A stretch of DNA of 22,397 bases from Aquificaceae bacterium (GTDB lineage: Bacteria > Aquificota > Aquificia > Aquificales > Aquificaceae). Under the pieces are notes generated by a model that saw nothing but the letters and a program-made list of their open reading frames with translations, was not told where the DNA came from and ran no database searches. Position 1 is the stretch's first letter, and each line of letters starts with the position of its first letter. Positions 1 to 22,397 of the stretch are shown one piece after another. Position numbers and translations under genes: made by a program. The stretch covers positions 1 through 22,397 of the forward strand of contig JAXSMZ010000007.1 in the NCBI GenBank assembly GCA_037924335.1. Direction: 5' to 3'.

Positions 1-114
1 CCTGAATGTGGATATCAGGACAAGATAAACCGCGTAGGTGCGCGGTTCACAAGGGAGCTTATAGTCCCCTTGCCTGCTAAACCTCATTCTGTGGAATATT
101 TTTCTATGGGATGA
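1..114 (+). pseudogene. 3' fragment of a TnpB-like (IS200/IS605 OrfB) ORF, apparently internally deleted; runs off the left edge
   Basis: Frame +1 reads PECGYQDKINRVGARFTRELIVPLPAKPHSVEYFSMG* (TGA 112-114). The (C)PECGYxxKxNR segment resembles the TnpB zinc-ribbon start. The second CxxC and the RuvC-III D..NI segment are absent. Confidence 0.5.
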
Positions 115-124
115 GGAACTATAG
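28..124 (+). ncRNA. putative omegaRNA/reRNA-like structured right end of an IS200/IS605 element
   Basis: Hairpins at 28-47 (AACCGCG/CGCGGTT), 50-72 (CAAGGG/CCCTTG) and 82-116 (15 bp, four G-U pairs on the + strand). ACTATAG 118-124 is complementary to TTATAGT 59-65. Confidence 0.4.
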
Positions 125-127
125 TTC

Positions 128-1066
128 CTAGATTGACCTTTCTCTGAACCACTCTATAGTAAAGGTTAAACCATCTTTCAGGCTTACCTTTGGACTCCAG
201 CCCAGTATCTTTTTAGCTTTGGTTATGTCTGGACATCTCCTCATGGGGTCATCTTGGGGGAGGGGCTTAAAGACTATTGATGAGTTGCTTCCTGTTAGCT
301 CTATCACCAGATTGGCAAGGTCTAATACCTTTATCTCTTCTGGATTGCCTAAGTTTATAACCTCACCCGCTAGCCCATCCTTTACAGATGTTCTGAACAC
401 ACCTTCTACTAAGTCATCTATGAAGCAAAAACTCCTTGTCTGTTCTCCTCTTCCATACACAGTAATGGGTTCGTTTTTTAGAGCTTGCGTTATGAAGTTT
501 GGTATAACTCTCCCGTCTGCAGTTCTCATACGGGGTCCATAAGTGTTGAATATCCTCAAAACTCTAACATCAACACCATGCTCTCTGTAATAGGCCATAC
601 ACATAGCCTCAGAGAATCTTTTGGCTTCATCGTACACGCTTCTTGGCCCTATAGGGTTCACGTTTCCCCAGTAGGTTTCTGGTTGGGGGTGTACCTGAGG
701 GTTGCCGTAAACCTCAGATGTAGAAGCAAATACGTACCTTGCCCTCTTTAGTCTGGCAAAACCTAAAGTGTTCATTGTTCCAAGAGAATCAACCTTCATG
801 GTATGTATGGGATGGGTTAGATAATCTACGGGGGATGCAGGGCATGCAAAGTGCAAAACCATATCAAAGGAACCTTCCAGAAAAACGTAATTTACCACGT
901 TGTAATGGACAAACTTAAACCTTTTGTGTTCAAGGAGATGCTGTATATTGTCTGGTGAACCCGTCAAGAAGTTATCTATACCAACAACATCAAAACCTTC
1001 TTTGATAAACCTGTCGCAAAGATGGGAGCCTATAAATCCAGCAGCTCCAGTTATTAGAACACGCAT
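128..1066 (-). CDS. UDP-glucuronate decarboxylase (UXS-like) NAD-dependent epimerase/dehydratase
   Basis: Rossmann motif [22 protein letters not shown], catalytic [25 protein letters not shown]. Confidence 0.9.
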
Positions 1067-1141: not shown

Positions 1142-1507
1142 ATGATACAGAGGCAAGGTTATGCAAACGTGGCTGATAACTCTGGTGCAAAGAGAGTACA
1201 GCTCATAGGTATACCTTACGCACCGAGAAAGTATGCTACCTTGGGCGATGTTGTTACGGTTACTGTTAAAGAAGCTGCACCCAACAGCCCAGCCAAAAAA
1301 GGTAAGGTTTACAGAGCAGTTATAGTCAGGACTAAGAAAGAGGTGAAACGCCCCGATGGTAGCTGCATAAAGTTTGATGATAACGCAGTGGTGCTTTTGA
1401 ATCAGTATGGAGAACCGTTGGGAACTCGTATACTTGGCCCCATAGCTAGAGAGGTAAGAAACAGAGGATTTACAAAGATAGCATCCTTGGCTCCGGAGGT
1501 AGTTTAA
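1142..1507 (+). CDS. rplN: 50S ribosomal protein L14
   Basis: [36 protein letters not shown]. Confidence 0.99.
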
Positions 1508-1508
1508 C

Positions 1509-1865
1509 ATGGCATCGAGGATAAAGAAAGGAGACACTGTTGTTGTAGTTAGAGGAAAGGAGAGAGGAAAGACTGGGGAAGTTATCAAAGTCTTGAAGGA
1601 CGAAGACAGGTTGGTGGTCAAAGACATAAACATAGTAAAAAAGCATGTTAAGGGTGTACCCAACGTTAGGGAGAGCGGTATATACGAAATGGAGGCTCCT
1701 ATTCATATAAGCAACGTTATGCTTGTGTGCCCAAAATGTGGGAAGCCCACAAGGGTGGGTTTTAGGATGGAGGAAGAGGGAAAGACCTTTAGAAAGTACA
1801 GGTATTGCAAAAAGTGCAATGAAAGTTTAGACTTAGTAACATCAAAAGAGAGGGCAAAGGTATGA
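1509..1865 (+). CDS. rplX: 50S ribosomal protein L24
   Basis: KOW motif [28 protein letters not shown]; operon position. Confidence 0.99.
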
Positions 1866-2425
1866 GTGTAGAGACTAGGTACATTCCAAGGCTTTATGTG
1901 AAGTACAAGAACGAGGTGGTCCCAAAGCTTGTAAACAAGTTTGGTTACAAGAACCCAATGGAAGTTCCCAAGATAGTGAAGATAGTTGTGAACATGGGTG
2001 TAGGAGAGGCTGTGCAGGATATAAAATATTTGGAAAGGGCTATAGAAGATATAAAAGCCATAACGGGACAACATCCTGCTGTAAGAAGGGCAAAAAAATC
2101 GGAAGCTGGCTTCAAGCTTAGGAAAGGTATGCCAGTTGGTATAAAGGTTACCTTAAGGAAAGAGAGGATGTGGGACTTTTTGGACAAGCTCATATCTGTA
2201 GCTCTTCCGAGGGTAAAGGATTTTAAAGGACTAAATCCAAGGTCCTTCGATGGAAGGGGAAACTATGCTTTTGGTATCTCAGAGCAGATAGTCTTTCCCG
2301 AGATAGATTACGAAAAGGTCGATGCCATTAGAGGTATGGACGTAATCATAAACACTACAGCCGAAACAGATGAAGAAGCTTTCTGGCTTTTGTCCCTTCT
2401 TGGGCTACCCATTAGAAGTATGTGA
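1862..2425 (+). CDS. rplE: 50S ribosomal protein L5
   Basis: [30 protein letters not shown]. Confidence 0.99.
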
Positions 2426-2436
2426 AGGAGGAAATA

Positions 2437-2625
2437 ATGGCAAGGAAGGCGAAGGTTGCTAAGGATATTAAACATTTCCCCAAGTACGATGTGAGGAAGA
2501 AAAACAGGTGTCCTCTTTGCGGAAGGCCAAGGGGCTTTGTAAGGTATTTTGGGATGTGCAGACTCTGTTTTAGAGAGCTTGCTCTAAAGGGTGAGATCCC
2601 AGGTATGAGGAAAGCAAGCTGGTAA
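2437..2625 (+). CDS. rpsN: 30S ribosomal protein S14, zinc-binding (type Z)
   Basis: ATG at 2437 after [18 protein letters not shown]...CRLCFRELA...PGMRKASW. Confidence 0.98.
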
Positions 2626-2636
2626 GGAGGTAATAG

Positions 2637-3047
2637 ATGGATACTGTAGCAGATATGTTTTCGGCCATCAAGAACGCCATAAACAGGAGGAAGGATTATG
2701 TTGATGTTCCCTCCTCAAAGTTAAAGGAGTCTATCCTTAACATACTGAAGGAAGAGGGTTATATAAAAGGATGGGAAAGGTTAGAAGATAAAGCTCATAG
2801 AAAAGGGACCCAGTATACTCTCCGAGTACATCTCAAATACTTAGACCAAAGAAAGCAAAGCAACGCCATAAAGGAGCTTGTAAAGGTTTCCAAACCAGGA
2901 AGGAGAGTCTATGTTCCAAGACATAGAATGCCTCACGTTCAAAAGGGTCTTGGTATAGCCATACTTTCGACGGATGCTGGTATAGTGACAGACCATAAAG
3001 CGAGAAGCTTGGGGAAGGGTGGAGAGGTGATAGCTTATGTTTGGTGA
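2637..3047 (+). CDS. rpsH: 30S ribosomal protein S8
   Basis: MDTVADM, SKPGRRVY, GLGIAILST, GGEVIAYVW. Confidence 0.99.
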   Translation: MDTVADMFSAIKNAINRRKDYVDVPSSKLKESILNILKEEGYIKGWERLEDKAHRKGTQYTLRVHLKYLDQRKQSNAIKELVKVSKPGRRVYVPRHRMPHVQKGLGIAILSTDAGIVTDHKARSLGKGGEVIAYVW

Positions 3048-3055
3048 GGTGAGAC

Positions 3056-3601
3056 ATGTCAAGAGTAGGTAAGAACCCTATCAAAGTACCAGATAAGGTA
3101 AAGGTGAGCATTGAGGGCAACCTTATAACGGCTGAGGGGCCAAAGGGAAAGCTTTCCATGAACTTCCATCCGGACATGAAGGTATACATGGATGGAGGAT
3201 ACATAAAAGTAGAAAGGCCAAGGGATGAACCTTTTTACAGGGCTATACATGGAACCACGGCTGCCTTGATAAGGAATATGATAAAGGGAGTAACGGAAGG
3301 CTTCACCGTTGTTTTAGAGATATTTGGCTTGGGATACAGGGGAGCCGTAAAAGGTGGAAACTTGGAGCTAAGTCTGGGGTATTCACATCCAGTGGTCTAT
3401 CCCATCCCTCCAGATGTAAAGATAGAGGTAAAGGAGAACAAGATATACGTGAGCGGTATAGACAAACAGAGAGTAGGTCAGGTGGCAGCCCATATTAGGT
3501 CTTTCAGAAAGCCAGACATATACAAAGGAAAGGGTATAAGGTACGAAGGGGAAGTTTTAAAGCTTAAAGCTGGTAAAGCAGCAGTAAAGGGCAAAAAGTG
3601 A
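3056..3601 (+). CDS. rplF: 50S ribosomal protein L6
   Basis: [27 protein letters not shown]. Confidence 0.99.
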
Positions 3602-3612
3602 GGTGGTGAGAC

Positions 3613-3984
3613 ATGGCAAGATTAAAAAGCAGTGAGAGAAGAGAAAGAAGGCATAAAAGGTTAAGAAAGAAGATGTTTGGAACAGCGGAAAGACCAAGGT
3701 TATGCGTGTACAGGAGCTTACATAACTTCTATGCACAGGTCATAGATGATACAAGGGGGCACACTTTAGTCTCTGCCTCTTCTATAGACCCAGAGTTTGT
3801 AAAGCTGACTGGCAAGAGGGGAGGAAAATCCATAGATGACGTGTGTAAGGTAGCGGAGACATTGGTAAACAGGATGAAAGAGAAGGGTATAACCAAAGTG
3901 ATTTTTGATAGAGGTGGCTTTCTTTACCATGGAAAGATAAAAGCTTTTGCCGAAAAGTGCAGAGAACTTGGGCTTGAATTCTAA
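3613..3984 (+). CDS. rplR: 50S ribosomal protein L18
   Basis: [24 protein letters not shown]. Confidence 0.99.
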
Positions 3985-3995
3985 AGGAGGTTATT

Positions 3996-4568
3996 ATGGG
4001 TGGTGTAGACCTAGAGAAGCTTATTGATGAAAGGAGAAAAGTGCAAGGCATATCTGGTATAAGCGATGAGCTTCAGATTGAGGAAAGACTGATATACGCC
4101 AAAAGGACAACAAGGGTGACAAAGGGTGGTAAAAGGTTTTCCTTTGGTGCATTGGTCATAGTAGGCGACAAAAGAGGTTACGTAGGCTTTGGTCTTGGAA
4201 AAGCAAGAGAGGTTCCCATCGCAATAGCCAAGGCCATAGAGGATGGGAAAAAGCACATCATCAGAGTTCCAATAGTGGAGGGGACAGTTCCCCACGATGT
4301 GGTTGGCAAATACGGACCAACGCAGATAAGAGTACTGCCGGCAAGAAGAGGAACTGGTATAGTTGCCGGGGGTGCTGCAAAGCCAATATTTGAACTTGCC
4401 GGGTACACAGACGTTCTTACAAAGCTTCAGGGAAGTACCAATCCCAATAACGTTGTTAGGGCTGTTTTTGATGCTCTTTTGAAGCTCAGGTCCATGGAGG
4501 AAGTGGCGAGGGAAAGGGGTATAGACCTTGAGGAGTTAAAGCGGAGATACCATACATATGCGAGGTGA
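3996..4568 (+). CDS. rpsE: 30S ribosomal protein S5
   Basis: VTKGGKRFSF, GKAREVP, GTGIVAGG, GSTNPNNVVRA. Confidence 0.99.
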   Translation: MGGVDLEKLIDERRKVQGISGISDELQIEERLIYAKRTTRVTKGGKRFSFGALVIVGDKRGYVGFGLGKAREVPIAIAKAIEDGKKHIIRVPIVEGTVPHDVVGKYGPTQIRVLPARRGTGIVAGGAAKPIFELAGYTDVLTKLQGSTNPNNVVRAVFDALLKLRSMEEVARERGIDLEELKRRYHTYAR

Positions 4569-4574
4569 AAAGAG

Positions 4575-4763
4575 ATGTTAAAGGTCACGCTTTTAAGAGG
4601 ACTTGCTGGAAAGCCTGAGGCTCAGGTGCAAGCTGTGAAGAGCCTTGGGCTTAAAAAGGTCGGTCAGACTAGAGTGTTGCAGGATAATCCAATGGTAAGG
4701 GGGAACATAAAAAAGGCCTGGAGCCTTATAAAAGTCGAGGAGGTAAAGGATGAAACTGCATGA
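4575..4763 (+). CDS. rpmD: 50S ribosomal protein L30
   Basis: 62 aa, SLGLKK...DNPMVRGNI; lies between rpsE and rplO. Confidence 0.96.
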
Positions 4764-5196
4764 GCTTGCACCCAACGAAGGAGCTACAAAGGAGAGAAAA
4801 AGGGTAGGAAGGGGTATAGGTTCAGGTCTTGGGAAGACATGCGGAAAAGGTCATAAGGGGCAGAAAACAAGGTCTGGAGACAGAAGACTTCCTTCTTGGT
4901 TTGAGGGTGGGCAAACGCCACTCCACAAAAGGGTACCCAAAAGAGGCTTTAGAAGCTTAAACAGGGTAGAGTATTCTGTGGTAAACTTGAAAACCCTTGA
5001 GCAATATTTCCAGGATGGTCAGGAGGTAAACCTTGAAACCCTTTATGAAAATGGTCTAGTTAAAAAGGGTATGCCCGTAAAGGTCCTTGGAGATGGAGAG
5101 CTTACCAAAAAGCTAAAGGTAAAGGCTCATGCTTTTTCATCCTCGGCCAAGCAGAAGATAGAATCTGCTGGTGGTTCCTGCGAGGTCCTAACGTGA
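4750..5196 (+). CDS. rplO: 50S ribosomal protein L15
   Basis: [29 protein letters not shown]. Confidence 0.99.
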
Positions 5197-6491
5197 TAGA
5201 GTACATAAAACAGATATTTACCCTGGAGGATTTCAGGAAAAGATTTGTATACACGTTGCTTATGTTCTCCATATACAGAATGGGAAGCCATATACCCCTT
5301 CCTGGTATAGACACAATGGCCCTTGAAGACTTCTTCAGAAGCTTTCAGGGAACCATATTCTACCTCTATGATATATTCTCCGGTGGAAATTTAGGGCGTA
5401 TGACTCTGTTTGCTCTTGGTGTGATGCCCTACATATCTGCATCTATAATGATGCAGCTTCTGACGGTGGCTGTTCCAGAGCTTCAGAGATTGGCAAAAGA
5501 AGAGGGCGATTATGGAAGGTATAAGATAAATCAGTACACAAGGTATTTGACAGTCTTCGTTGCTTTTGTACAGTCCATAGGTATATCTGTGTGGCTTCAG
5601 AATCAAGTTTCCCCTAGGGGTATGCCCATAGTTCCGGATGGGGGCTTTGTTTTCACTTTTACCACTGTAATAGCTCTTGTCTCTTCAACCATGTTCCTTG
5701 TGTGGGTAGGGGATAGGATAACAGAGAAAGGAATAGGGAACGGAATGTCGCTCCTAATATTTGCCGGTATAGTGGCTGGCTTCCCAAACGCTTCTATAAG
5801 AGTAGTAGAGATGTTAAGGAACGGTGACCTATCCCCCTTTGCCTTTGTGGGAGCCATAATATTTGTCATAGCTGTTATAGTAGGCATAGTGTTTATGCAG
5901 GAGGCGGAGAGAAGGGTACCCATCCAGTACCCAAGAAGACAGGTAGGAAAGCACGAGATGGCCGGAGGTTCTACCTATCTCCCCATAAAGATAAACCCTG
6001 CCGGCGTCATACCTATAATATTCGCCCAATCCCTTCTCATAATACCATCAACGGTGATAGGTTTTATAAACCATCCCATAGCTCGTATACTTCATGATGC
6101 TTTTAACCCAACTACCATCTTTTATAACTTTCTCTATGTGCTTTTCATAGTGTTCTTCACATACTTTTACACTGCAGTGCTTATAAATCCAGTTGATGTG
6201 GCAGACAATCTAAAGAAGGGGGGAGCTTTCATCCCTGGAGTTAGACCTGGACAAGATACACAAAAGCTCATGGAGAGCATAATAAACAAGCTGGCTTTCA
6301 TCGGTGCCATATTCTTGAGCGTCGTGGCTACCATCCCTATATTCATAAGCTTGTGGCTAAAGGTACCCTTTTACTTTGGTGGAACAACGGCTTTGATAGT
6401 TGTTGGCGTTGCTCTCGATACTCTCAACAAGATAGAAGCTCAGATGATACAGAAAAGGTACACTGGTTATATGAGGAGGAGGGTAAGATGA
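5193..6491 (+). CDS. secY: preprotein translocase subunit SecY
   Basis: Multi-pass membrane protein; [39 protein letters not shown] start overlapping the rplO stop. Confidence 0.99.
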
Positions 6492-7129
6492 TACTTGTCT
6501 TCCTTGGACCACCGGGTGCGGGGAAGGGAACACAGGCAAAGCTCTTATCCCAGGACCTAAAATTCAAGCATATTTCCACGGGTGACCTTCTCAGAGAATC
6601 TGTAAAAGAGGGGACTCTGTTGGGTCTGAAGGCTAAGAGCTACATGGATAGAGGAGAGCTTGTCCCCGATGAGCTTATAATAGCCATGATAGAGGAGGTT
6701 ATGCCAAAGGACAGCGGTGTTATCCTGGATGGATTTCCCAGGACAATGAAGCAAGCGCAGGCTCTCCAAGATATGCTGAATAAACACGGTAAGTATCTTT
6801 GCAGGGTCTTCTTCTTTGACCTGGATGATGATACGATAGTGAAAAGACTCTCTGGAAGAAGGGTCTGTCCCAACTGTGGCGCTCTTTATCATATGGATTT
6901 CAAGCCACCTAAAAAGGATGAAGTGTGCGACCTGTGCGGTACAAAGATTATTCAGAGGGAGGATGATAGGGAAGAAGTGGTCAGAAAAAGGTTGGATGTT
7001 TACAGAAGACAGACTGCAGAAGTCGTTGACTTTTACAAGAAAGAGAATAAATTAATTCACTTGGACGCTGGACAAGACATTGAAAGGGTGTATCAGGAGC
7101 TTAGAAAGGCTTTAAAGGATGGCTGTTGA
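6488..7129 (+). CDS. adk: adenylate kinase with zinc-binding LID
   Basis: True start is ATG 6488 (ATGA overlap with the secY stop); GPPGAGKGT P-loop, LDGFPRT, CPNC..CDLC. Confidence 0.99.
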   Translation: MILVFLGPPGAGKGTQAKLLSQDLKFKHISTGDLLRESVKEGTLLGLKAKSYMDRGELVPDELIIAMIEEVMPKDSGVILDGFPRTMKQAQALQDMLNKHGKYLCRVFFFDLDDDTIVKRLSGRRVCPNCGALYHMDFKPPKKDEVCDLCGTKIIQREDDREEVVRKRLDVYRRQTAEVVDFYKKENKLIHLDAGQDIERVYQELRKALKDGC

Positions 7130-7904
7130 ACTGTACTCTTTTAAGGAAATAGATAAAATAAAAAGGGCGTGCGATGTTGTAACCCAAGTTCTCCAAGTTG
7201 TATCTGAGCATGTAAAGCCCGGTGTATCCACTTGGGAACTGGACATTATCGCAAGGGAGGAGACAAAAAAAAGAGGAGCTCGTCCTGCCTTTCTTAATTA
7301 CAAACCCCCATTTAGCAGAAGAGCTTATCCAGCAGCCATATGTGTATCTCTAAACTCGGCTATAGTTCACGGTCTTCCAAAGAAAGAGCAGATTATAAGG
7401 AAAGAAGATTTGGTAAGTTTGGACTTTGGTGCTATAATAGATGGATACGCTGGGGATTCTGCTTTAACTCTGTCGGTGGGAAAAGTTGATGAGAAGAAGG
7501 AGACTCTTTTGAAAGCTACAAAGGAGGCATTGGAAGAAGCAGTGAAGATGTGCGTTGTGGGCAATTGGTTGAGCGATGTGGTAGAAGCCATCCATAAAAC
7601 TGCGGAGAAGTATGGTGTTTATCCTGTGAGAGGGCTTGGTGGTCATGGCATAGGCAGAAAGATACATGAGGAGCCCTTCATACCCAATAACAGGAAGGAC
7701 ATGGAGAAAAGAAACGTAAAATTAAGGCAAGGTATGGTAATTGCGATAGAGCCCATGTTTGCTCTTGGGACGGAAGAGACAAGAAACGATAGTGATGGAT
7801 GGACAGTGCTTACAGCTGATGGGGGTCCATCTGCCCACTTTGAGTACACTGTAGCCATAACTAAGGAAGGTCCTATAGTTCTCACGGAGTTTAAAGATGG
7901 GTAA
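7119..7904 (+). CDS. map: type I methionine aminopeptidase
   Basis: [29 protein letters not shown]. Confidence 0.98.
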
Positions 7905-8136
7905 GAAAAAGGAGGAAAAGCAGCACAAAGAAAAGGGTATAGTGCTTGAAGGGACTATTGTAGAAGCTCTCCCCAACGCTATGTTCAGAGTAAAGCTGGA
8001 TACAGACCATGAGGTGCTTGCTCACGTATCTGGCAAGATGAGAGTCCATTTCATAAGAATACTTCCAGGAGATAGGGTAAAGGTGGAGCTTTCCCCCTAT
8101 GATCTGACAAGGGGGCGGATAATCTACAGAGCATGA
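7897..8136 (+). CDS. infA: translation initiation factor IF-1
   Basis: [30 protein letters not shown]. Confidence 0.99.
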
Positions 8137-8162
8137 GAATTATTAACTTGTTAGGAGGTTAG

Positions 8163-8282
<120 letters not shown>

Positions 8283-8293
8283 GGAGGTAAGAG

Positions 8294-8674
8294 ATGGCAA
8301 GGATAGCTGGTGTTGACCTTCCAGACCATAAGAGATTGGAGGTGGTTTTAACATATCTGTACGGTGTAGGTTGGTCTAGGGCAAGGGAGATATGCAACGC
8401 TGCGGGCATTCCATATACAAAGAAACTTGGAGAGTTAACCCCAGATGAGCTGAACACAATAAGGAAGTACATAGAACAGAACTACAGGGTGGAAGGAGAC
8501 CTAAGAAGAGAAGTGCAGATGAATATAAAGAAGCTCATAGACATGGGATGCTACAGAGGTATAAGACATGCAAGGGGGCTTCCCGTTAGAGGTCAGCAGA
8601 CCAAAACCAATTCAAGAACCAGGAAGGGTAAAAAGAAAACAGTTGGTGGTACAAAGAAGAAGATAGTTAAGTAA
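8294..8674 (+). CDS. rpsM: 30S ribosomal protein S13
   Basis: [37 protein letters not shown]. Confidence 0.99.
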
Positions 8675-8685
8675 GGAGGTTATAA

Positions 8686-9075
8686 ATGGCCAACAGAAAG
8701 GGACAATCTAAAAGGTCAAAGAGGACGGTAAGCAGCGGTATTGTAAACATACTAAGCACATTTAACAACACTATAATAAACATAACAGATCAGCAGGGGA
8801 ACACTCTCTCATGGGAAAGCGGTGGTACCGTTGGTTTTAAAGGTACAAGAAAGAGCACTCCTTATGCAGCACAGCTTGCCGCACAAAAGGCTGCCAAAAG
8901 AGCGATGCAGGAGTTTGGTTTGCAGGAAGTAGAGGTAAGGATAAAGGGTGCTGGAGCTGGCAGAGAGTCTGCTTTAAGGGCTATACATGCATCTGGGCTG
9001 AAAATAAAGCTCATAAGGGATGTGACTCCAATACCCCATAACGGATGCAGACCACCAGCAAGGAGGAGGGTATGA
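8686..9075 (+). CDS. rpsK: 30S ribosomal protein S11
   Basis: [28 protein letters not shown]. Confidence 0.99.
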
Positions 9076-9076
9076 A

Positions 9077-9706
9077 ATGAGCAGGTACATAGGTCCATGG
9101 TCAAAGGTAGATAGGAGATTTGGTGTTGCTGTCTCTAACAAGAGAGGCGGTAGTAAGACTTTAGCAAGAAGGAACTTCCCACCAGGACAGCATGGAAGAT
9201 TAAAAGGAAGGAGGAAAAAGCTCACAGAGTTTGGCATACGCCTGATGGAAAAGCAAAAGTTAAAGTTCCTTTATGGCGGCATTAGGGAAAAGCAGTTTAG
9301 GAGATACTTTGAAGAGGCATCAAAGGCAAAGGGAGATACAGGACAGGTTCTTATACAACTTCTTGAGAGAAGGCTTGATAACGTAGTCTACAGGCTTGGA
9401 ATGGCATCCACAAGGAGACAAGCCAGACAGCTGATCTCCCATGGTCATATACTCTTGAATGGAAAGACTATGGATATACCATCTTACAGGGTTAAGCCAG
9501 GGGAGATAATAGAGATAAAACCATCCTCAAGGGATATACCTCAGATAAGAGAGAACATCGAAAGCATAGACCCAAGGAGTATTCCATCCTGGCTCGAGCT
9601 GGATAAAGAAAACTTTAGGGGCAAGGTCATCGATGTTCCTAAGGATGTGCAGATTGAGATTCCTGTTAACGTTCAGTACATCATTGAGTTTTATTCAAGA
9701 GTTTAA
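9077..9706 (+). CDS. rpsD: 30S ribosomal protein S4
   Basis: MSRYIGP, PPGQHG, LERRLDNVVYR, ARQLISHGH, EFYSR. Confidence 0.99.
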   Translation: MSRYIGPWSKVDRRFGVAVSNKRGGSKTLARRNFPPGQHGRLKGRRKKLTEFGIRLMEKQKLKFLYGGIREKQFRRYFEEASKAKGDTGQVLIQLLERRLDNVVYRLGMASTRRQARQLISHGHILLNGKTMDIPSYRVKPGEIIEIKPSSRDIPQIRENIESIDPRSIPSWLELDKENFRGKVIDVPKDVQIEIPVNVQYIIEFYSRV

Positions 9707-9717
9707 GGAGGTTTATT

Positions 9718-10668
9718 ATGCAAAGAGAGTTTCTTTTTCCCTCAAAGGTTTATTGGGAAGAGAAGAATAAAAAGTATGGTAGGTTTGTTGTGGAGCCTTT
9801 GGAGAGGGGGTTTGGCATAACATTAGGAAACTCACTAAGAAGGACTCTCCTATCTTCCATAGAGGGAGTGGCTGTTACTGGTGTAAAGATATACGGAGTT
9901 CATCATGAGTTTTCCGCCATAGAAGGTGTTATGGAAGATGTACTTGAAGTTATAGCAAACATAAAGAAGATAAGGTTTAATCTAAAGAACAGCGACGTGG
10001 AGATTCTGTATTTAAAGAAGGGTGGTGAAGGCGTAGTCACGGCTAAAGACCTTACATTACCACCAAGCGTACAGGTTATAAATCCAGACCAGAAGATAGC
10101 CACCATAACAGACCCGCAGAAAGAGCTTAACATGGAAATAAGAATTGAAAGGGGATTTGGATACATGCCTACTGAAGAGATGGAAGTTCTCGGCGAAGTA
10201 GGATGGATATTGGTTGATGCAGATTTCTCACCAGTTCGTCAGGTAAGTTTTAAGGTTGAAAAGACAAGGGTGGGTAAAAGAAGCGATTATGACAGATTGA
10301 CCATGGAAGTACACACTGATGGGACCAAGGGTCCAGAAGAAGTTATAAAGGAAGCCATCTCTATACTAGTTAAGTACTTTTCAAGCTTAGAGCATATCTC
10401 CTACGAGCTACCAACTGTAGAGGAACACATTGTTGTAGATGAGCTTGCTGAAAAGCTCAGTCTTCCTATAGAGGAGCTTGACGTATCTCAAAGGTCTCTT
10501 AACTCTATTAAAAGAATAGGCATAAGTACCATAGGCGACCTTGTGAGGCTCTCCGAAGAGGACCTGAAAAGCACAAAAAACGTAGGAAGGAAAGCTATAA
10601 ATGAGATAAAGGAAGCTCTCAAACAGATGGGTTTATACTTAGGTATGGATGTAGAAAGCAGGAGGTAA
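9718..10668 (+). CDS. rpoA: RNA polymerase subunit alpha
   Basis: [29 protein letters not shown], alpha-CTD. Confidence 0.99.
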
Positions 10669-10670
10669 AC

Positions 10671-11027
10671 ATGAGACATAGAGTGAAGAAAAAGCACTTT
10701 GATAGAACTAGAGAACAAAGGATAGCTCTCTACAGGTCTCTTGCCTCTTCTCTTATAAGAGAAGAGAGGATAGAAACTTCTCTCCAGAGAGCAAAGGCGG
10801 TTAAACCCTTCGTTGAGAGGCTCATAACCCTTGCCAAGAAGGGAGACCTTTCTTCAAGAAGAAGGGCTCTTGCTCTTCTGTCTGACAAAGACACAGTAAA
10901 GAAGCTCTTTGAGGATATAGCTGCAAGGTTTGAAAACAGGAACGGTGGGTACACAAGGATAGTTAAGCTTTCAGAAAGACGTGCAGGCGATGGATGTGAG
11001 CTTGCCTTGCTTGAGTTCGTAGAGTGA
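10671..11027 (+). CDS. rplQ: 50S ribosomal protein L17
   Basis: [20 protein letters not shown]. Confidence 0.99.
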
Positions 11028-22307: not shown

Positions 22308-22332
22308 CGGTATTAGAAACTAATCACTGAAT

Positions 22333-22365
22333 ATATAGAAGTTTATAGACGCATATAGAAGTTTA
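22333..22365. repeat. 13-bp direct repeat with 20-bp period
   Basis: ATATAGAAGTTTA at 22333-22345 and 22353-22365. Confidence 0.8.
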
Positions 22366-22381
22366 GAAACATAAAGACCCC

Positions 22382-22387
22382 TTGACA
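22382..22387 (+). promoter_or_regulatory. possible -35 box of a divergent promoter (its -10 would be outside the window)
   Basis: TTGACA at 22382-22387, just downstream of the direct repeats. Confidence 0.4.
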
Positions 22388-22397
22388 CTTTTGGTTG

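Follow-up and report, generated by a model that had tools for sequence, protein, structure and literature searches.

A truncated tnpB tail at a contig start of an Aquificaceae genome as probable part of a multicopy, putatively IS607-type miniature element with a predicted trimmed omegaRNA

The tnpB-derived tail that opens the window, by which we mean the whole 22,397-nucleotide stretch of Aquificaceae DNA analyzed here, very probably belongs, over positions 1-122, to a miniature non-autonomous element. We interpret it as one copy of a multicopy, IS607-type non-autonomous element whose trimmed omegaRNA likely guides an intact TnpB made elsewhere in the genome, a reading based on sequence comparison to which we assign a probability of roughly 0.55.

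Base 1 of contig C7, one of the 39 contigs of the assembly (genome G000), is also the first base of the window, and the DNA upstream of this copy is therefore unassembled. Frame +1 reads PECGYQDKINRVGARFTRELIVPLPAKPHSVEYFSMG up to the stop codon at 112-114, the same translation as given in the earlier note, and the element ends 8 nt past this stop. Intact tails in the same genome contain additional residues, ...NR[KGEHFKCLRCGYEGDADI]VGA[RNVLM]RFTRELIV..., relative to which the window frame lacks 18 codons and a further 5 codons. The missing DNA comprises 54 nt at 33|34 and 15 nt at 42|43 in window numbering, and the 18-codon loss removes the second zinc knuckle (CxxC) together with the RuvC-III Asp, which aligns with D335 of a close homolog. 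The intact tails, and the match of their parent protein to a TnpB profile, confirmed the TnpB origin proposed in that note, as well as the loss of the second knuckle and the catalytic Asp. Its view that the RNA lies downstream and was kept did not hold, since the RNA overlaps the remnant codons and both deletions cut the RNA itself.

The intact parent is a 367-aa TnpB with three copies in genome G017, and overlapping stop-free pieces of the parent gene are present on contigs C19 and C13 of G000. The G017 protein matched PF07282 with 57.9 bits (cut-off 26.3) and the TnpB profile NF040570 with 100.8 bits (cut-off 100). In the Pfam profile search PF01385 was not matched by the parent, and the 37-aa window peptide matched no Pfam family; one of the two families named in the earlier note was thus recovered, on the intact parent. 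The RuvC D-E-D triad is present in 65 of 74 homologs, and six more, which look truncated, lack only an aligned third position. None of these 74 homologous proteins (201-643 aa) has the window's deletion. The named relatives in the pattern and protein searches were mostly Aquificaceae. In G017, one tnpB-bearing element (L064, C1:750300-751956) lies within a Y1 tnpA gene, in the opposite orientation.

A right-end search of G000, using the last 82 nt of the element, yielded 23 matches, nine of which have the exact window deletion, making the trimmed form the most repeated derivative in this genome. The 3′ flanks of the nine deleted copies are all different, and the similarity among copies stops at 122-123. 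A left end was found upstream of six of the nine, either contiguous (C4, C18 and C27) or across N gaps (C7:22603, C8 and C15); of the others, the C26 copy has a gap at the expected left-end site, and the C7:1 and C27:1 copies lie at contig starts. In all six copies where the left end is visible, it is joined directly to the last ~200 nt of tnpB, and none of the nine is joined to upstream tnpB coding sequence. At full length the element measures 293 bp, a ~85-nt left end followed by the last ~200 nt of tnpB, and has an open frame of ~70 codons that begins at a stop within the left end. The sister copies on C18, C4 and C27 have the features of PATE- or MITE-type elements, that is, both ends, no complete protein gene and multiple copies. 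The window copy has both marker bases typical of the miniature copies in G000, which are absent from the three copies joined to mid-tnpB; together with the sister copies, these two bases argue strongly for its miniature status. The "eroding IS" considered in the earlier note was partly correct, but the form with the deletion recurs nearly unchanged in nine copies with different flanks, and was therefore copied after the deletion arose. The features of the window and of the complete sister copies are listed in Table 1. Two other internally deleted derivatives in G000, C4:18957-19326 (− strand, 375 bp) and C17:14311-14772 (+ strand, 462 bp), have a shortened right-end hairpin.

Table 1. Features of the window, in window coordinates, and of complete sister copies, in contig coordinates
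Feature	Position	Strand	Basis or remark
Right-hand 122 bp of the non-autonomous miniature element (very probable)	1..122	+	Cut by the contig start; 97.6-100% identity to 8 other copies, 3′ flanks different
Remnant tnpB 3′ frame, stop 112-114, probably untranslated	1..114	+	Translation
3′ part of predicted omegaRNA hairpin P3	1..23	+	Consensus fold columns 68-96; single-sequence fold
Trimmed stem P4 (predicted)	26..49	+	Junctions 33|34 (54 nt) and 42|43 (15 nt); new pair C33-G42; consensus and single-sequence folds
Predicted hairpin P5	50..72	+	Inverted repeat I5; loop ATAGT at 61-65
Helix P2, 3′ strand, closing the multi-way junction (predicted)	73..78	+	Columns 62-66 with 214-218; partner upstream of the contig start
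Right-end hairpin P6 (predicted)	82..116	+	Inverted repeat I2 and consensus fold; contains TTTCTAT (101-107)
Element terminus AACTAT	117..122	+	Flanks diverge after 122; empty allele in run X8
Predicted guide, flanking host DNA	123..138	+	Antisense to the end of the epimerase gene; by analogy with known TnpB biology
Host NAD-dependent epimerase/dehydratase gene	128..1066	−	PF16363 and PF01370
GTAT target (22310-22313) and left end of the next miniature copy	22310..22397	+	Runs into an assembly gap just beyond the window
Complete sister copies	C18:155-447, C4:55007-55299

The consensus fold of ten full-length copies comprises a 5′ hairpin, a three-armed multi-way junction and a right-end hairpin; the last 200 nt of a complete miniature gave a folding z of −10.5. 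In these ten copies 16 of 88 pairs change on both sides, a number reached by none of 500 shuffles and compared with 2-6 in slid controls; two divergent G005 copies contribute a large part of this covariation signal, and the alignment is the one to which the structure was fitted. The P5 loop is complementary to the terminal ACTAT (118-122), forming a predicted pseudoknot that lacks covariation support because both segments are invariant in the 16 aligned copies. Rfam contained no match for the element RNA. The junction of the left end carries TTGACA 16 nt before TATGTT, just upstream of the RNA, with 10 of 12 promoter matches; promoter-like sites were not above chance (3 found versus 1.3 ± 1.2 expected).

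In the deleted form, 9 nt stand in place of the distal 78 nt of the longest arm; the basal stem remains, and the other helices and the predicted pseudoknot are spared. Among 186 placements of the replaced 78-nt block, the real one ties for the fewest orphaned pairing partners (1 orphan), and when scored as two deletions with the 9 nt kept, it again ties for the best (8 orphans). A stricter first null was passed by none of the 186 placements, including the real one, which removes one basal partner; this null was too strict and was set after the fact, and the orphan count was used instead. The closing pair 33/42 is C-G in G000 and T-A in G080, L109, L235 and runs X7 and X8. As a compensatory pair it lends weak support, since only two lineages are involved and a C/G or T/A combination is already found at these positions in 11 of 29 full-length copies. 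In the window copy, A27 (G in the sister copies) breaks one P4 pair. Derivatives in which the fold is wrecked persist as well: L119/L250 have a 54-nt deletion across P3/P4, only the 3′ part remains in L103, L110, L130 and L240, and P1 and P3 are gone from the C4:18957-19326 and C17:14311-14772 derivatives. The 3′ fragment in L103, L110, L130 and L240 is of the trimmed form and starts at an internal GTAT directly after the stop codon of the upstream gene. At L109:2050-2280, the trimmed RNA has no left end, lies behind TTGACA-17-TAAATT and is fused to the start of a small host gene, where an ATG opens a 61-aa remnant frame.

A second TnpB family with related ends is represented in G000 by an RNA-only element of 307 bp (L042, C8:49460-49766, − strand), bounded as GTAT|TAGGAACTAAT ... 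GGAACTAT. This element has a predicted TTGACA-17-TATATT promoter, and its RNA, which folds strongly (z about −6), shows a 71% match to the 3′ end of tnpB in G004. The parent family was recovered with a covariance model of the trimmed RNA, but the 307-bp element was not, and the two RNA families are therefore not shown to be homologous.

The ends of the miniature point, indirectly, to mobility by a serine recombinase. GTAT precedes all 21 left ends in G000 (21/21) and the right ends finish with ACTAT. There are no terminal inverted repeats and, in two empty-site comparisons, there was no target-site duplication, as in IS607 elements. By inspection, the left end contains repeats of ATAGAA and the right end their inverse, the TTTCTAT within P6, which may serve as a transposase binding site. 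A subterminal hairpin is present at the right end, and the left ends give weak, inconsistent folds. The AT at 121-122 is the putative crossover core shared with the GTAT target.

A left end and a tnpA were the two transposon hallmarks at issue in the earlier note; the left end was recovered as described above, and no match to a Y1 transposase, a resolvase or an IS607 TnpA was found in the G000 assembly, which may be incomplete for repeats. Among nine Y1 loci from relatives, none had such a left end, and the resolvase loci first taken from relatives likewise lacked these ends. Ends of this kind bound a related element in G004, in which a frameshifted gene begins with a helix-turn-helix and contains a YARVSS motif; a search with a piece of this gene matched 15 of 178 genomes. 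In three genomes (G102, G105 and G123), an intact serine transposase frame follows GTAT|TGAAACTAAT(C/T)AC, a left end near-identical to the miniature's, and is succeeded by tnpB and the element end ACTAT. Two of these three transposases were scanned and matched NF033518, the IS607 transposase profile, with 184 and 181 bits (cut-off 110). Decayed serine transposases lie behind such left ends in G004, G064 and G078, and the G064 left end is identical to the miniature's over the first 17 nt before the decayed tnpA. The link to the serine transposase is indirect, because the G102, G105 and G123 elements carry a different TnpB family. We accordingly class the ends as IS607-type rather than as IS200/IS605, the family named in the earlier note, and not as canonical IS607, given the putative AT core instead of GG; these ends suggest that GG is not the sole core used by IS607-type transposases.

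Two observations concern variation at the termini. In the G005 copies L039-L041 the target is apparently GTGT and the right end is still ACTAT, so that the cores would mismatch. In L041, L241, L081 and L250, the right end consists of a purine-rich motif plus AT, and insertion at GTAT|G rebuilds a ribosome-binding site and an ATG. Of ten flanks starting with G, four have a frame of 80 aa or more opened by the regenerated ATG, versus 8 of 54 controls, and this rebuilding may make insertions at gene starts harmless.

At the site of the window copy, a contig of run X8 is ~95% identical over the epimerase gene and has unrelated DNA, ending in GG, past position 120, representing the empty allele GGTAT|AG. 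The epimerase gene is convergent to the element and undisrupted, with its stop 5 nt from the element; directly after it, according to the translations, comes a ribosomal protein cluster from rplN to rplQ (1142-11027), the upstream part of the usual cluster being absent from the window. The second empty-site comparison involves a hydrogenase accessory gene, the halves of which flank the left end on C10 and the right end on C4. Two different element variants, at L124/L258 and at C10/C4 of G000, occupy the same position of this gene in different genomes, which suggests a hot spot or homing. The right end of the next miniature copy, also of the deleted form, is located at C7:22481-22602. The GTAT plus guide of the window copy had no match elsewhere in G000, and the same was true of all nine deleted copies (0/9).

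Outside G000, the deleted form was found in G080, the metagenome contig L109 and contigs of runs X6, X7 and X8. As for its conservation in related genomes, raised in the earlier note, G080 was the only one of the other 177 genomes searched that contained it. Contig C4 is chimeric across its repeat copy near 55000-55300, the right flank belonging with the C10 left flank, and flank pairings in G000 therefore need care. The orphan left end on C10 was rejected as the partner of the window copy, as relatives pair C10 with C4:55300. Synteny did not place the left flank of the window copy, the gene order being scrambled in relatives, and the left flank in run X8 is absent from G000 both as DNA and as a peptide motif. 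Viral contigs gave no match to the right-end pattern; a short left-end pattern matched 61 times, never with a tnpB relative, and these matches were taken as chance.

The same miniature could carry its RNA as an inert passenger; replication slippage at a stable stem-loop would then have removed the hairpin, and spread would depend on the DNA ends alone. Symmetrical loss within a hairpin of ~93 nt is a possible outcome of secondary-structure-driven deletion and could come without selection. The G27A stem break in the window copy and the persistence of derivatives with a wrecked fold or without most of the RNA count against a guide role, and, as G000 yielded no transposase, the burst may have ended. 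An inert RNA fits less well with the retention of the basal stem, the junction helices and the pseudoknot, with the Watson-Crick pair at 33/42 in both deleted lineages and with the trimmed form being the commonest derivative in G000. A second TnpB family with related ends, moreover, also gave an RNA-only element, behind a near-consensus promoter (C8). We regard an inert RNA as possible, though not as the expected outcome.

A full-length, nuclease-dead TnpB, acting as a TldR-like RNA-guided repressor with its gene continuing upstream of the contig start, corresponds to the domesticated protein envisaged in the earlier note. All three deletions (54, 15 and 6 nt) are in frame, which has a chance of ~1 in 27, TldRs are described as losing the zinc finger and the C-terminal RuvC (PMC10705468), and the upstream DNA of the window copy lies beyond the contig start. 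Nevertheless, none of the nine deleted copies is linked to the N-terminal ~270 codons, the copies at L109 and L235 likewise do not join upstream tnpB, and no such protein occurs among the 74 homologs. The window copy, with its miniature-lineage markers, is multicopy and bounded by transposon ends, unlike TldR loci; in addition, its site is empty in a related strain (run X8) and its guide has no target in G000. A dead TnpB is very improbable on these grounds. The in-frame deletions would also suit a remnant kept as a short translated frame (60-70 aa) and coupled to a downstream host gene through the stop codon, a GAGGA motif and the terminal AT(G), as would the 61-aa frame directly before the host gene at L109 and the frames opened by the regenerated ATG. 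Against such a frame, none of the G000 copies offers an in-frame ATG with a ribosome-binding site, the sole ATG after the predicted promoter sits near the end and is ATA in the window copy, and the neighboring gene of the window copy is convergent; we consider translation highly unlikely. Least credible of all, and largely refuted, is a deleted form created in assembly by the collapse of a repeat: the repeat does break many contigs and C4 is chimeric across one copy, but the same junction recurs, with different bases, in separate assemblies (G080, L109 and contigs of runs X6, X7 and X8).

We return to the non-autonomous element with a putatively guide-competent RNA. A ~1.2-kb tnpB-only parent exists, from which internal deletion produced the miniature forms; a further loss of 54 and 15 nt removed the distal arm of the longest predicted stem while the other helices stayed. 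The trimmed form lies at nine sites after GTAT, with no target duplication at the two comparable empty alleles. Its mobilisation would have relied on a serine transposase (TnpA-S) that acted in trans and recombined at the shared AT, and the putative TTGACA-16-TATGTT promoter would transcribe an RNA through the right end into 16-20 nt of the flank. An intact TnpB would then load the trimmed RNA and cut empty alleles bearing GTAT and the flank, and repair would restore the element. More tentatively, we can picture an Aquificota IS607-type lineage with AT-in-GTAT recombination whose protein-less offspring, equipped with a working minimised omegaRNA (~190 versus ~260 nt) and a hybrid promoter of their own, hijack a thermophilic TnpB for protection and spread.

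Protein-less elements encoding omegaRNA are already known. In the open-access literature, we found no report of natural omegaRNA trimming or of the GTAT specificity, nor of an IS607 element with a GTAT target or an AT core. What had been supposed to be a dead nuclease becomes a natural experiment in guide-RNA trimming. A working trimmed RNA would mark the dispensable part of this TnpB's scaffold and show that protein-less elements are selected as guides; such selection has been proposed before, and we found no test of it in the sections of the sources that treat it. The parent TnpB, from hot-spring bacteria, is compact (367 aa) and has a predicted GTAT TAM, and the putative AT core runs against the statement on GG in a 2026 review (PMC13565253), as worded in the relevant section. 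If the RNA is inert, the element would be an ordinary MITE with an unusual target.

Among known systems, TldRs resemble the window frame in lacking the zinc finger and RuvC-III residues. As described in PMC10705468, they retain the remainder of the TnpB fold and are neighbors of host or phage genes, whereas in the miniature the N-terminal three quarters are gone and the sequence is a mobile repeat; its nine different flanks contrast with a stable association with a non-transposon gene, and the empty site in run X8 with a loss of mobility. Engineered truncations of the ISDra2 reRNA (PMC12415229) are alike in that part of the tnpB-overlapping RNA is removable, and deletion of core stems lowered activity in that report; the trimming in the miniature is natural and internal to a stem, the homology of which to the ISDra2 stem is not established. 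According to PMC10055086, PATE elements that lack proteins frequently code for omegaRNAs that are acted on in trans. The PATE-like IS200/IS605 derivatives of Geobacillus stearothermophilus described there share with the miniature the ends without protein genes, the retained omegaRNA and its proposed use by TnpB in trans. They differ in that the miniature's ends are of the serine-transposase type without a strong left-end hairpin, and in that its RNA scaffold is internally shortened.

In its ends the miniature resembles the IS607 family (IS607, IS1535, ISXfa1 and CboIStron; PMC6188088, 10.1101/2023.08.09.552727, 10.1101/2023.11.20.567912 and PMC13565253). In the relevant parts of these papers, as in the miniature, there are no terminal inverted repeats and no target duplication, short motifs are repeated at the ends, a short core is shared by both junctions, and TnpB comes with a right-end RNA and a pseudoknot; a serine TnpA is found in relatives that have the miniature's ends. 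The miniature itself has no TnpA, and neither does G000 as assembled. Where these papers treat the core, it is GG (PMC6188088, PMC4058570, 10.1101/2023.11.20.567912 and PMC13565253) with G-rich TAMs, in contrast to the putative AT core (TAT identity) and the GTAT target of the miniature. A pseudoknot is reported as required in an IS607 TnpB RNA (10.1101/2023.08.09.552727), and the ATAGT/ACTAT complementarity predicted here resembles it.
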